The notes under the pieces are model-generated. The model made no database searches, was not told the origin of the DNA, and saw nothing but the letters and a program-made list of their open reading frames with translations. Source: Elsinoe ampelina (lineage: Eukaryota). Taken from it: DNA of 60,331 bases. Numbering within the stretch: position 1 is the stretch's first letter; each line of letters begins with the position of its first letter. Location of the stretch: contig ML992515.1 in NCBI GenBank assembly GCA_010093995.1, positions 549,533-609,863 of the forward strand, given 5' to 3'. This document shows, piece after piece, positions 44,616 through 60,331 of this stretch. The position numbers and the translations under genes were made by a program.

Positions 44616-47482
44616 TCAAGCATCACTGCCTGAAGAGAGCGAGGCTGTAGCTGACTGATGCATACTTGCCCTTGCATGTGCAACGTCGCCACCGAAGCCT
44701 GCGGCAGCAAGATTCTTTTTTTGGTGTTGGCAATCGAGTACTGACTCCTCCACCGTGCCTTTCATCATGTAGCGAATAATTGTGACATCTCGTTCTTGGC
44801 CTAGTCGAAGTGCCCGTCCAATGGCTTGTTTCTCGATGAATGGATTCCACTGAGGCTCTACGATGTGTATGCGAGTGGCAGCGGTGAGGTTGAGTCCAAG
44901 TGCGCCTGTACCAAGAGTCATCAGCATCGTAGAACAAGTTGAATCATTTTCGAATGTCCTGAGTGCCTGCTGTCGATCCCCTTGTTGGACCTCACCGTGG
45001 ACTCGCACAAAGCGAACTCCAGCAGCTTGACAAAGTTGTGCACAAATGTCCAAGGTCTTCTTCCATGTTGAAAATACTATGCTCTTGTGTTCTTGCTGCG
45101 TTGACACAAGATCACTCACGAGTGCCTCCAATTTCGTTGAATGAGGTGTCGCATTCGGTAGTAAAACTGACCCTACTGCAGGCACGGAATCGAAAGACCG
45201 AGAGTGTACTTGTTGTTTGCATACAGGACAGTGATAAGTATCGGATAACGCTTCTTCGGGTGAGGAGAGTTGGCAACAATTAGCACACAAGAGATGCCCA
45301 CAAGAACCCAACACGCCAGCACCGAGATGTCCCTGCGAGCTGAGGGTCAAGATTGCAGCTGTGCAGTAAGCACAGCATGCAGCTTCTTGTTGGTCAAGTA
45401 GAGAGAATTGCTCATCTGCATCCAGTTGGTCGTCTGCAGAATCGGAGGCACTGCGGTTGCCAAAGGTGCCCATGTTACACAGGATTCGATGCTGTAGCAG
45501 TAGTCGGAACTTGATCTGGGTCTGTCTAGCCAAGACATGACCGTTGACGATTGCGTCCTGGTCTCTCAGGGCTTGTTGAGTCAGCTTCGTGTATTCTGAT
45601 CTTTCTGCAGCGGATAGTGATAAAGTCCTCGTAACGGAATGAGGCGGTTTGAAGCCCAGCATGTCCTTGGTGCGGCGAAGGCACAATGGTGCTAGAGTCG
45701 TGCGCAAGAGGCGACGTCCTACGGCGGGATTCTGCGCAGTGACCCTGACCACTTGCTTGCGGAAGGTTGCATAGTCATCGAGCAGAGGGACTTTGCAAAA
45801 ACGGAGTAGCGGGCCAAGATCTTCGACTTTATTGGAGATAGGCGTGCCTGTAAGACACCATGGTTGATTTGTCTGCAACGCTAGCACTGCCTCGCACTGC
45901 CGTGTCTTCGAAGATCTGATGATATGGGCTTCATCTAGGACAATTCTGAACCAGTCGGTAGAGTACAGCACCTGTCTACCACCTTGACGGGACTTGCGGA
46001 ACTCGTTAGCGAGGGTAGCGTATGTCGTGAGGACGATGTCATGTTGCTGCAGTTCTGAGAAGTGTCTCAATCGCCCGTGGCCATGATGTATGATGAACTT
46101 GAGTGCGCCGCTTACTGTCAGGCATTCGATCTCGCTTGCCCATTGTTCAAGGATGAGTAGAGAAGGCGCGATCACAAGGGTCGATCTCGTTGGCGTTAGA
46201 CTCCGATCCCGATGTGTGGTCGGCTTGATCAAGGACTGGAATGCCTGTGCTCGGTCCCTCGAGCTGGTGATCAACGCAATGGTTGTCAACGTCTTGCCAA
46301 CGCCCATGTCATCTGCTAGAATGCCACCCCGTGGTTCATCACCCCTGTGCGAGCGTCGGGCTCCCGTGACAATGTGCTCGTATCTGTGGAGTCAGACATT
46401 GTATCGCATAGTCCTATTTATGACTCACAATGTAGGTCCCGCAGTCGTAGTGTCGTGCCGCCAGTACCTCGAGCTATCGTCAATCTGTGCGGTCTCCCGC
46501 CGAGTCATGAAATGTAATCCTTCTATTTGATGCCTGGAGTGATATAAGTAAGATGGCACATGGACGCGGAGCATTCTCACGGATGGAGGTTGACAGTGAG
46601 ATCAATAGATTCGTGATTCACTGCTCTGGTCAATGGCTGCTCAAGACCTTCAAGGATCGTAGACCAGTCTCGATCGCACTCAGCTTGCCAACGGAACGGG
46701 TTGTCAAGGAGAAGGTCTTGCAGCAGAACAGCGTCTTCGTCTATACCATCGATCGACCACAGATGAGGATTCTGGTGTGGGTGTTCTGGATAATTCCACT
46801 CTGGACTTTGCAGGAACATGCCATGATCGGAGAGGATCTCTCCCATCTCGGAAGTGACCTTTCGGGGGCCGAAAAGATTTATGCATATCGAGAACTTGGT
46901 CGCACCAGGGGTCTTGCGAATTCTTTGTTGGCCGAAGACCTTGTGAAGTGTCTGCCGAGTGATGTAGGCATTTATATAGACTGACTCGGCGACAGCCTGT
47001 AGTGCAATCGCAGTCAGACGGTTTATCTGAGCGAAAGCAATAGACCCCAGGACGAGATGCGCGGTCTGTCGACTGGCGAAATTGACCCATAGAGTTACGT
47101 GTATGCCGTCTGGACAAGCTTGCTCCAAATCATGGCCAGTCGGAGTTGATGCTCCAACGAGGAGTTGACATCCCACGCTGTTCAGCTACCGATCTGTTAG
47201 CGCGGCCGACGAGAGGGCTCTTTCTTCACTCACCATGCCATAGCAGACACTTTCTCCGAGCGCTCTGAGCGACAATGAGCCGTTCAGATCTGCCGTCGAC
47301 GGAATCTGCACTGTGCCATGAATAGCATTCTCTGGCGAGTGCTCGGGGACAAAGGTGGATTCTGGAGAAGAATGAACGTGCCAGGAACCTTCCTCGGAAT
47401 CGGTTGATGCCTCGGCCCCCGAACCTCTTCGAGCTCTTTTGGGGTCCACTGACACACCGTACGTGTCAGAACATCTCTTCAT
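44616..47482 (-). CDS. SNF2-family helicase/ATPase with inserted RING finger (Rad5/Rad16-like architecture); 3 introns
   Basis: Spliced VCYGM|LNSV..., HQIEGLHFM, GGILADDMGVGKT, LDEAH, LTGTPISN, CLRRTK, RING C..C...CGH..C..C...CPVC, GLNLT.A, QAIGRALRLGQ. Confidence 0.88.
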
Positions 47483-47763
47483 TTCTGTCGAGGTTCACCG
47501 AGTCTGGGAGACAAGAGTCAGTTCTGGAGGCAGAACATGACAACGATTCTCAGAATTTAGGCACAGGTGTCGCTGTCGCTCCGCCACTTTTACCCCTCCC
47601 TAGCTACGGGCGCCCGCATGAAAAGTCTGCCTTAATGCATTCAGCACTGCCTCTTGATGCACAGGCTATATCATAGCCCAGTACCCCTCCGCCTACGAGC
47701 TCATTGCAAATGAGTCAGTAGAAGCTGCAGCACGGTGACACTCTAACACAAGTATGCGCGATC

Positions 47764-57856: not shown

Positions 57857-58619
57857 GAGTTGCGATCGTAGTTGAAGCTATACAAGGCTGTCTTACTTTG
57901 AGGGCAGTATCAAGGAGGGACAGGGAGGGGTATGTGTCCAGGGCGAAAGTGGAAGATGATGGTGCATAACAAAATGAAGAGGAGAAAGTTTGCTGGGAGA
58001 TGTTCCAAGAAGAAGATGATGATCAAGCTCTGCAAAATGCAAAACAGCCGACTTGACGTAGTAGTCGTCCCTTTCTGTGCCTGAAGAACGAGAGCATAGT
58101 CCTCTCGTCCAATCAGAGCGCCACATATGACCCAACGACGTGGGAATGACCGGGTACCTGCATGGCGACAAAGAAGAAGCTGCGTTAACTGACTTACCTT
58201 GGCCCCGTTCACCCACATGGTCATCACAAAATGAGATCACCGTCCATCATATACGATTTCATCCTGGCGATGTTGAATGCGAAAACACCACAGACTCCCC
58301 TCTCGATGGTAACGTTGCCCGCTCGCAAGTGGCAGCAAGTTGATGCAAAACGGGCCTACAGCGCCAGCAAACACGGTGCATCACGTTTGGGGCATGGAAA
58401 TATCTTCGTGTGACCTGTTTCAGATTATTCCCACGGAACAGAAAGGACACCCGCATCAAAGTAGTTACGGGAGGGAAGGATGAGGGATGGAAGAAGAAGG
58501 AGTCGTCGTCCGGAGAAAGTTTGATTAGCTCATCTGATCACGTGCTCAACTCCGACTGTCAACTGAGGCATAAGCTGGAGCGCCAAGAAGACCCTGATTT
58601 AGTTCATCCTAAGGTTGAA

Positions 58620-60331
58620 CTAAACACTATCTTACCATTTTACTAATCTATAATTAAATTAGATAATTATTGTCTTAATCTACTACTATTAAGGAGTTCT
58701 TTTAATTTAGCTATCTTTTAGTATACTAGGTTAAGTATTTATATAGTTATAATCTACCTTATTTTAGTAGTTTAGGCAGTAATTAATCCTTTTTCCTCCC
58801 CTATATAAGTTAATAGTTATAAGCCCGGTATAACTACCCCTATATAAGTATATTACTTAGTTACTTTCCTACTCTATTTATTAGTTAATTCTCTACTATT
58901 TTGCTTTTTAAGTATTAGAATCTATTAAGAACTACCTTAACTATAACTATAGAATTTAGGTATTAATAAAGGAATAAACAACTATAGATACTAATACCTT
59001 AATAGCTAGAATACTTATTATTCTTGCTATATTAGCTAAATAGGCTAGCTAGCTATATATTATTAAGATAAGAGTATTAAATACTAAGATATAGAACCTT
59101 ATTAATCCTTAGAAGACTATTAAACTAGAAGGGCTTCCTAAGCCTTAGAGGCTAGAAGTAGTAAATATTAACTTCTTAGCACTCTTTTAGATATATAAGA
59201 AGGAATAAGCATAATATAACAAATAGTATAAGGCCTTAGCTAATTTAGCTAGCCTTATCTAGTTATTAATTATACTATAAGTTTTTACTATTATCTAACT
59301 AGAGGAGAATCCTTATCTCTAGGCTATCCTTAGAGTATTAAAGAATAGATTTGCTTTATCTAATATAGCTATTTAGCTTAAGGTTAAAGTACTTTAGAGG
59401 AAGTAGCTATCTAGTTCTTCCTTATAGAATATAGACTATTAGCTTTAGTAATAGAAAGAGGTTATAGATAAGGCTAGGAACTATAATCTACTAGAAGCTT
59501 AAGGCTTAAGGCTATAGAGAGACTAATACGGAACGGAACATTATTTATCTAGCTACAAGGCTTATATACGTAGTAGCACGAGTTAGGACTTAGCTTTAAG
59601 TTTCTTAACTGTTCCTTTTAGTTAGGTTAGCTACTACACTTGCGTTAGAGACTTCTTACTCTCTATCTTAAAGACTAAACTAGTATTTACTAATAAGTAC
59701 CTTATTAATCTAGATTTACTAACTCTACTAACTATACTTAAACTAATTACTAAGTTTAGATAGTTTTATAAACTCTATAAGCTATATAGTACTATAAAGG
59801 CTAGTAAGGGGGCTACGGCCTTCCCTATAGCTACTAAGAATATTCTTTATAAGAAACCTAGTCCCCCTAGAGAGCCTAAATATATATACTAAGGCTAGTA
59901 TAAGTAGATTAAGTACTATTACTTAAATAAGTATCTAAGGCTAGAAGAATAGACACTAAACTAGTAGACTATAAAGGAGATTAAATAAAGGCTAAATAAT
60001 AAGACTTTTAAAGAGAGAATTAAGGCTTCTATTACTAAGGAAGTATAACATTAGAAGGGGTTAACTCTACTAGTATTAATTAATATAGCTATTACTATTA
60101 GATTATACTTAGTATTTATTTTAGCTACTAGTAATATCTCTAACTTATAGATACTAGATTCTAGAGTAACTAATTATATCTATAATTACACTATAAAGGA
60201 TAGATATAAGGTTACTAGAATTATAGAACCTTATAAGAAGCTATTCTATAGTAATACCTTACTTAGTATTAAGAGTTAAAGAACTATTAATATTATAGCT
60301 CTTTATAAAGGAAAGCCTATAACTATTTATC
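58620..60331 (+). mobile_element. RIP-inactivated Ty1/Copia LTR retrotransposon (5' part: LTR region, PBS, gag, protease), runs off the window
   Basis: Abruptly AT-rich, TpA-rich and CpA/TpG-depleted. Reversing transitions gives gag knuckle C-I-C-x-G-Q-H-K-W-I-E-C-Y-Y-L (59881-59925) and protease W-I-L-D-S-G-A-T-D-H-I-C-N (60148-60186) in one frame. Left boundary approximate. Confidence 0.85.
58815..58828 (+). other. Primer-binding site of the Copia element
   Basis: AGTTATAAGCCCGG is a RIP-type derivative of GGTTATGAGCCC, the initiator tRNA-Met-derived PBS recalled for fungal Copia elements. It precedes the gag region. Confidence 0.65.

Follow-up and report, generated by a model that had tools for sequence, protein, structure and literature searches.

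Most NLR-like (NOD-like receptor) genes of fungi have no known function, and the few that are understood signal to small partners that attack membranes. Modules in which a fungal NLR is accompanied by an adjacent partner gene include NWD2/HET-S and related amyloid-signalling pairs. In the accessible parts of the papers describing them (PMC3321046, PMC4344463, PMC9815663), the gene of a NACHT protein of the STAND class (signal transduction ATPases with numerous domains) adjoins that of its presumed executor, the linkage is conserved from species to species, and the families contain paralogues and evolve fast. We analyzed a locus of Elsinoe ampelina (Dothideomycetes, Myriangiales) that shares all these traits and differs in the nature of the partner. 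The window, i.e. the whole stretch of DNA under study, comprises 60,331 nucleotides (GenBank assembly GCA_010093995.1, contig ML992515.1, positions 549,533 to 609,863 of the forward strand). Towards its right end lie three genes, which we call A (a predicted HIRAN-SNF2-RING protein), B (a NACHT protein) and C (a predicted homologue of ZNFX1). A previous reading of the sequence alone, hereafter the sequence-only reading, had seen here three consecutive nucleoside triphosphatase (NTPase) genes, which Pfam and our gene models confirm, and had proposed that they form a defence island analogous to those of bacteria. We rather find that genes A and B recur side by side in distant fungi. It seems to us fairly probable that they constitute one evolutionary unit, spread throughout the Pezizomycotina and joining a STAND switch to a DNA enzyme, with gene C as a neighbour by descent in Elsinoe.

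The A-B pair departs from the NWD2/HET-S type, as far as the accessible text of the same papers goes, by its partner, by the N-terminus of its NACHT protein and by its sensor. The partner is a 900-aa HIRAN-SNF2-RING enzyme, whereas in the known modules it is a small protein, a pore former or a lipase, that carries an amyloid motif at its C-terminus. The N-terminus of B is a full DUF7708/Goodbye-like domain and not a short amyloid motif, and the sensor consists of C2H2 fingers where the known modules have WD40, ankyrin (ANK) or tetratricopeptide (TPR) repeats. In the accessible text of PMC9815663, the terms "C2H2", "zinc finger" and "helicase" do not occur. We found no published description of the A-B pair in the open literature (subscription journals and bioRxiv supplements were outside the search), and the literature search returned no paper on DUF7708. 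A text match to "HIRAN" in PMC13449251 was discarded, being the author name Hirano.

A second parallel can be drawn with bacterial defence systems that contain STAND or SNF2 proteins, such as Avs/AVAST, DISARM with DrmD and Zorya with ZorD. Like the A-B pair, they couple a STAND NTPase to a nucleic-acid motor or effector, and in both cases the argument comes from a conserved gene neighbourhood. On the other hand, the A-B pair is eukaryotic, bears introns and consists of two separately transcribed genes, and its sequence relation to the bacterial systems does not go beyond the superfamily level.

The recurrence of the pair was analyzed in metagenome contigs, which were scanned with an alignment of the gene A helicase exon. 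This returned 80 loci, in which neighbours of the B family were sought by tblastn with 32 B-family proteins. Sixteen loci matched. One of them, L073, was not counted as a paired locus, its match being restricted to ankyrin repeats and lying 7.5 kb off. In a FastTree of the SNF2 parts, built with no named Rad5 reference, one clade united the window with 12 named proteins, with every one of the 15 loci that have a NACHT neighbour and with four loci whose upstream DNA is shorter than 1.3 kb; it was separated with a support of 100 from 57 other SNF2-RING loci. These form its sister group on the tree, show 28-31% identity to gene A and never have a NACHT neighbour. L029, L039, L042 and L070 had been left out of the tree for their short matches and were placed later by best match, L029 (with 2 nt of upstream DNA) in the A clade and the other three in the control clade. 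A NACHT neighbour was thus found in 15/15 testable A-clade loci versus 0/51 testable control loci (Fisher p 3.7e-15). The controls were 60 SNF2-RING loci, all negative, of which the 51 with at least 2.6 kb of upstream DNA counted as testable; five further A-clade loci with less than 1.3 kb upstream lie outside the testable count. After merging of near-identical rows, the figures became 12/12 and 0/40.

The arrangement of the pair is also recurrent. The B-type gene lies upstream and divergent in 14 loci, separated from the helicase exon by 1265-1965 nt (in the window, by 1382), and downstream and convergent in L010. All 11 distinct loci have NPHP3_N/NACHT in the B-like neighbour, and the C-terminal position of the superstructure repeats (WD40, ANK, TPR) is filled by C2H2 fingers, in one open frame, in 10/11 and by ankyrin repeats in 1/11. 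A and B were the only open reading frames (ORFs) of the window to match the loci, the flanking genes varying from one locus to another. Moreover, the pairwise identities of A and of B co-vary (r 0.76 over 15 pairs, with 0/2000 permutations as high), which fits joint inheritance. Three genes of types often linked to fungal cell-death/NLR systems were met near the pair, each in a single case: an S8 subtilase that immediately follows the B-like gene (L004:2032-3148), a DUF7580-PNP_UDP protein (L010:18601-20745) and a caspase-like peptidase C14 (L015:16854-18218).

Named genomes gave the same picture. In the homologue lists, A-like and B-like proteins carry neighbouring locus tags in distant fungi, and six of the eight named species looked up have consecutive A/B accessions: Glutinoglossum americanum (KAH0537607/8), Apiospora rasikravindrae (KAK8044966/7), Lophiostoma macrostomum (KAF2647501/2), Hypoxylon sp. 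FL1284 (KAI0157993/4), Penicillium solitum (KAJ5870881/2) and Elsinoe fawcettii (KAF4555644/5). The five of these six that were checked belong to four classes. Consecutive accessions were read as adjacent genes, following GenBank practice; E. ampelina agrees with this, the accessions of B and C ending in 821 and 822. The coordinates of the features of the window are collected in the following table.

Table. Features at the E. ampelina locus, in window coordinates.
Feature	Position	Strand	Basis
Short-chain dehydrogenase/reductase (SDR) gene broken by TAG; left border, outside the module	43412..44320	+	adh_short_C2 E 9e-47 on ORF 43568-44320
Gene A, 908 aa, predicted HIRAN-SNF2-RING-Helicase_C (HLTF/Rad5 architecture)	44616..47482	-	Pfam, Rad5 match, RNA joints
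Gene A exons	47482-47234, 47185-46580, 46532-46429, 46383-44616	-	RNA contigs
Predicted HIRAN-fold domain of gene A, 157 residues of exon 2	46715..47185	-	AlphaFold2 and fold searches
Intergenic spacer of the divergent genes A and B, 281 bp	47483..47763		Starts at 47482 (-) and 47764 (+)
Gene B, 786 aa, predicted DUF7708/Goodbye-like N-terminus, NACHT and winged helix	47764..50349	+	Pfam, RNA joints, NCBI model P0241
Gene B exons	47764-48047, 48101-49249, 49320-49433, 49482-49742, 49797-50349	+	RNA contigs
C2H2 zinc-finger region in the frame of gene B, beyond the TAA	50350..51171	+	zf-C2H2 E 1.6e-9 (Pfam)
Gene C, 1928 aa, predicted ZNFX1 homologue	51973..57856	-	Pfam, 9q9z match
Gene C exons	57856-57837, 57789-53435, 53384-51973	-	Two predicted introns
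AT-rich block of repeat-induced point mutation (RIP) type, reaching the window end	58620..60331		RIP indices

Contigs of four public runs (X3-X6), which belong to three studies, served to fix the gene models. The presence of spliced GT..AG joints was the ground for treating these contigs as RNA. X4-X6 come from a strain near-identical to that of the window but distinct from it, as two differences from the window sequence indicate. Genes A and B are both spliced in RNA contigs of the three studies. All three introns of gene A (46384-46428, 46533-46579 and 47186-47233) are seen as GT..AG joints in X3-X6, and the model contains no internal stop.

Gene A is predicted to have the HIRAN-SNF2-RING-Helicase_C architecture of Rad5 and HLTF. 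In ORF 44616-46391 (-), Pfam recognizes SNF2-rel_dom (E 7e-52), Helicase_C (E 1e-20) and, weakly, a RING. The translation contains DDMGVGKT as motif I and LDEAH as motif II, and among solved structures the best sequence match is Rad5 (6l8n, E 3e-54). The zf-RING_5 model reaches 18.9 bits, under its cut-off of 27.9, and E 4e-5 to 9e-6 in homologues. The pattern C-x2-C..C-x-H-x2-C-x2-C..C-x2-C lies between the helicase lobes, with Cys/His positions invariant in 18 relatives. Pfam matches nothing in the first 290 residues, either in A or in six homologues. We modelled 157 residues of this region with AlphaFold2 on an alignment of 50 homologues (mean predicted local distance difference test, pLDDT, 92.1). 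The top 10 Foldseek matches of this model are all HLTF HIRAN or Rad5. VIA superimposes it on the HLTF HIRAN domain (4s0n) with Z 12.2 and a root-mean-square deviation of 2.2 Å over 107 residues, against Z 7.9 for Rad5 (6l8o) and Z 3.5 for the next unrelated chain. It is this fold match, added to the SNF2, RING and Helicase_C parts, that leads to the proposed architecture. Gene A would resemble yeast Rad5 and human HLTF in domain order, HIRAN fold, GKT and DEAH motifs and a candidate RING between the lobes. In both protein collections, no match to gene A exceeded 50% identity, while B and C of the same contig were present at 100%; the deposited annotation apparently lacks gene A.

Gene B is NLR-like as judged from its predicted domains. 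Its model is identical to the NCBI model P0241 (annotated BDZ85DRAFT_41489, 100%), and its four introns (48048-48100, 49250-49319, 49434-49481 and 49743-49796) are all seen as GT..AG joints in RNA contigs. In ORFs 48099-50349 (+), Pfam finds DUF7708, NPHP3_N/NACHT and a winged helix. NPHP3_N is matched at E 7e-32, the NACHT model itself at 23.7 bits, under its cut-off of 26.7, and the Walker motifs GMPGAGKT and IVIDGLDE are intact in the translation. The N-terminus matches DUF7708 (E 1.9e-13 on P0241) and falls in the Atlas cluster DUF7708/Goodbye/NACHT_N (score 0.93, TM 0.86), which places it in this group of N-termini of fungal STAND proteins.

The sequence-only reading had described B as a NACHT-zinc finger gene. 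Both parts are indeed present in one frame, but this frame is not open throughout: gene B ends at an in-frame TAA (50347-50349), beyond which the same frame stays open for 273 codons that hold the C2H2 fingers. The TAA aligns with the Tyr of a YG..LFKCPR motif that is invariant in 9/9 homologues, from three named species and six metagenome loci. The finger ligands are conserved downstream of the stop, and the severed part is as similar to E. fawcettii (37% identity) as the retained part (37.6%). In X3, X4 and X6, RNA contigs run colinearly through the stop and match the window there. Removal of the TAA by splicing was considered and rejected, as no candidate intron has a branch-site consensus and the RNA contigs show no such joint. 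With its fingers lost to a stop at a conserved Tyr codon, the E. ampelina copy of gene B is probably impaired or recently broken. In Penicillium crustosum, the B-like gene consists of two adjacent models, PCG10_004349/PCG10_004350 (P0479/P0476), of 387 aa with NPHP3_N and 426 aa with C2H2 fingers. This may be a second break between NACHT and fingers, or an annotation artefact.

Several points weigh against the view that A and B form one conserved unit. The metagenome loci were picked by likeness to A, and the counts run from A to B only. These loci are also kin, so that the counts and the Fisher p overstate independence; what they show is a clean split between clades. The co-variation of identities is what shared species history alone would predict. 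In two of the eight named species, Lojkania enalia and Rhypophila decipiens, no adjacency was found between the A-like and the B-like protein listed, which may be different paralogues. Finally, with gene B truncated and the neighbouring SDR gene broken, the local copy may be decaying.

Altogether, the data support the view that the A-B pair is a two-gene system that looks like one acting on DNA. Rad5 and HLTF, which are DNA translocases and E3 ligases, function in post-replication repair and bind 3' ends through HIRAN. The most likely scheme is that B, a NACHT protein bearing fingers, would be a DNA-bound sensor or switch whose NTP-dependent oligomerisation, as in other STAND proteins, would recruit or activate its paired A. 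In the latter, HIRAN could grip a DNA 3' end, the SNF2 motor could remodel DNA or chromatin and the RING could ubiquitylate a target. The outcome would be a DNA-directed module of surveillance or silencing. A role of the pair in conflict or defence is plausible: the paralogy, the fast divergence, the exchange of fingers for ankyrin repeats, the broken copies and the NLR-type N-terminus all suggest it. A deeply conserved combination of an NLR-like switch with a motor and ligase of the Rad5/HLTF type would be a new NLR output, directed at DNA or chromatin and not at membranes. In any case, the pair is a concrete two-gene system that can be tested in tractable moulds.

One would also wonder whether the pair could simply be a housekeeping module for DNA repair or transcription, in which the NACHT-C2H2 protein is a sequence-specific regulator with its own Rad5-like remodeller. 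After all, the STAND protein MalT and the NLR CIITA are regulators, and C2H2 fingers and HIRAN-SNF2-RING are classical domains of DNA transactions. Transcripts of both genes occur in three RNA studies with no known challenge, and the pair is flanked by ordinary genes. However, some genomes hold several A-clade proteins (two in Pestalotiopsis fici, three in Apiospora arundinis), identity within the genus is just 38-42%, and copies are disrupted, by the TAA here and by the split model in P. crustosum. Furthermore, B has the kind of N-terminus (Goodbye/NACHT_N) that typifies fungal NLRs, and in one lineage ankyrin repeats have replaced the fingers as sensor. Such features characterize accessory genes with a fast turnover, and we consider a housekeeping role rather unlikely, though it deserves to be kept in mind.

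A bolder proposal is that the pair is a DNA-sensing NLR immune module. B would recognize invading or aberrant DNA, such as transposon copies, plasmids or the ends of integrating elements, and would then unleash A on that DNA. In Elsinoe, where the pair stands beside an RNA-directed ZNFX1, a single locus would cover both DNA and RNA non-self. We regard this specific version as doubtful, and as less likely than the housekeeping one.

By its sequence, gene C is a full-length fungal ZNFX1 homologue, a predicted RNA helicase with an RZ-type E3 module. The model contains no internal stop, and in ORFs 51973-57797 (-) Pfam recognizes CCCH, AAA_11 (E 9e-24), AAA_12 (E 1e-39) and ZnF_RZ-type (E 4e-24). 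In order, its parts are a CCCH finger, a superfamily 1 (SF1) helicase, a Cys-rich NFX1-type arm, a candidate Miz/RING-like site, a helical region and an RZ finger. The helicase carries GPPGTGKS and a deviant Walker B, LLCEEAGE, and the best solved relative is ZNFX1 (9q9z, E 4.7e-95, versus 8e-32 for UPF1). The Cys-rich arm aligns to residues 1328-1444 of 9q9z (E 3e-12), with Cys/His nearly invariant in 40 relatives, and no NF-X1 or RING Pfam model matches the Cys-rich parts, even at E<=5. The RZ finger covers the full profile (1-54) and also matches the RZ of RNF213 (E 6e-10).

Gene C was compared with human ZNFX1, as solved by cryo-EM (9q9z) and described in bioRxiv 10.1101/2025.10.14.682297 and PMC13710534. 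Both have a UPF1-like SF1 helicase with a deviant Walker B, EEAG in gene C and EEAA in the human protein. The preprint names Hrr1 of S. pombe as the closest relative of the ZNFX1 helicase insertion. Both also have a Cys-rich finger arm, and gene C has a Cys/His site at the position of the human Miz-like domain. They share an RZ finger with HWYxCPNGHP..GECG and are of similar length (1928 and 1918 aa), and gene C differs by the presence of an N-terminal CCCH finger. As to the ubiquitin-ligase modules announced for gene C by the sequence-only reading, the RZ is well supported and the RING-like part weakly so. Its candidate site consists of the invariant C45, C50, H52, C96 and C99 of the C-terminal exon (C..C-G-H..C-x2-C), and has one weak match to the RNF4 RING (probability 0.96, TM 0.56, E 0.63). 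In a fold search, the 469-residue C-terminus gave mostly generic helical-repeat matches (Z up to 11.2).

Over 1600 relatives of gene C were found in fungi, and its orthologues are 88% identical in E. batatas, 65% in E. fawcettii and 59% in E. australis. Among the listed matches to gene B, by contrast, E. batatas and E. australis had no B-type entry reaching 670 aa. Our model equals the NCBI model P0001 over residues 181-1928 (annotated BDZ85DRAFT_224682, 100%); the deposited model starts 180 residues later (region 57317-57856) and hence does not include the CCCH finger. The parts of gene C with no cover in X4-X6 were left uninterpreted. In X3, a contig with a depth of 106 covers 51769-53430, i.e. 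the 3' exon of gene C and 46/50 bases of the predicted intron, unspliced and with adapter at its end, and the next contig upstream (53517-54116) has a depth of 4.5. This step may reflect a short Miz-like/RZ transcript, intron retention or 3' bias, between which contig depths cannot decide.

The sequence-only reading regarded all three genes as one functional genome-defence island in a fast-evolving compartment, and had named a ZNFX1 linkage unique to this genome as a finding that would tell against it. The linkage is not unique: in E. fawcettii, the A-like, B-like and C-like genes are consecutive on one contig and in the same order as in the window (KAF4555644.1, KAF4555645.1, KAF4555646.1). 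All three families also have immune or genome-surveillance relatives (fungal NLRs and, in humans, the antiviral helicase/E3 ZNFX1). Between E. ampelina and E. fawcettii, A and B have changed faster (42% and 38% identity) than C (65-71%), and a RIP block adjoins the trio. On the other hand, a ZNFX1-family gene was found in the available contig DNA of 0/80 metagenome loci, including the 15 with the pair, and in the four other species for which both families are listed, the best A-family and C-family matches lie on different contigs (4/4). Synteny within a single genus needs no functional link, and ordinary genes occupy the remaining 44 kb of the window. Co-localisation across unrelated genomes, by which an island can be recognized, is therefore seen for A with B and not for C with the pair: the part of the island proposal that stands is the recurrence of A-B, and the part that does not is the trio beyond Elsinoe. 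We judge it improbable that the trio functions as a defence island in the bacterial sense, slightly more so than the immune module discussed above. As C is beside the pair in E. fawcettii but in none of the 80 loci, the locus would consist of a coupled pair and a genus-level neighbour, gene C being predicted to accompany the pair by shared descent within Elsinoe and to be no part of the module elsewhere. The result thus separates what is evolutionarily coupled (A-B) from what is merely adjacent (ZNFX1 and the RIP block), at a locus whose sensor copy is truncated.

Two further explanations fare worse. Head-to-head pairs can persist for regulatory reasons, and the A-B adjacency could have no other meaning than a bidirectional promoter that is hard to break, with C and the RIP block as chance neighbours. 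Yet the adjacency is kept at 30-50% protein identity and across four classes while all flanking genes differ, and the pair of L010 is kept though convergent, which a shared promoter cannot explain; we hold this to be very improbable. That a mobile element carries the pair as cargo or is built around it, as the several copies per genome in some species, the different context at every locus and, in the window, the nearby RIP-mutated repeat could suggest, is the least probable of all: no transposase, recombinase or reverse transcriptase was found at E<=1e-6 in 66 flanking ORFs of 11 loci, and the window shows no bounding repeats (the repeat search covered the AT block, not terminal repeats around the pair).

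The borders of the trio had been described as a stop-disrupted SDR gene on the left and a RIP-destroyed Copia element on the right. The former is borne out by an in-frame TAG at 43565-43567, which in the frame translation lies directly upstream of NKVIAITGANRGIG (Rossmann motif); an X3 RNA contig is colinear across this stop. On the right, the GC content, even at 0.50-0.60 up to about 58.6 kb, drops to 0.24-0.30, and the block has RIP-like indices (TpA/ApT 1.7-2.1, (CpA+TpG)/(ApC+GpT) 0.07-0.14). RIP is thus supported, whereas Copia is unconfirmed: no Pfam family was matched at E<=1 by the six-frame translation of 58600-60331, in which stops were read as X, and neither a reverse transcriptase motif of the Y[VI]DD type in the block nor a second copy elsewhere in the window was found. 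RNA contigs from X3, X4 and X5 follow the window at the edge of this block (58556-58815) before diverging, and at position 58590 the RNA contigs read C where the window reads T. As the contigs read C there and run off the edge of the block, they seem to come from less mutated, transcribed copies of the repeat elsewhere in the genome.

The remainder of the window (1-44 kb) holds ordinary genes, including those for EB1, ribosomal L24e, DnaJ and a catechol dioxygenase. This content does not agree with the fast-evolving compartment of the sequence-only reading and places the trio at the edge of a normal, gene-dense stretch. At 9284-11444, a gene for a mandelate racemase/muconate-lactonising enzyme adjoins that of the catechol dioxygenase, in what looks like a small cluster for aromatic catabolism.

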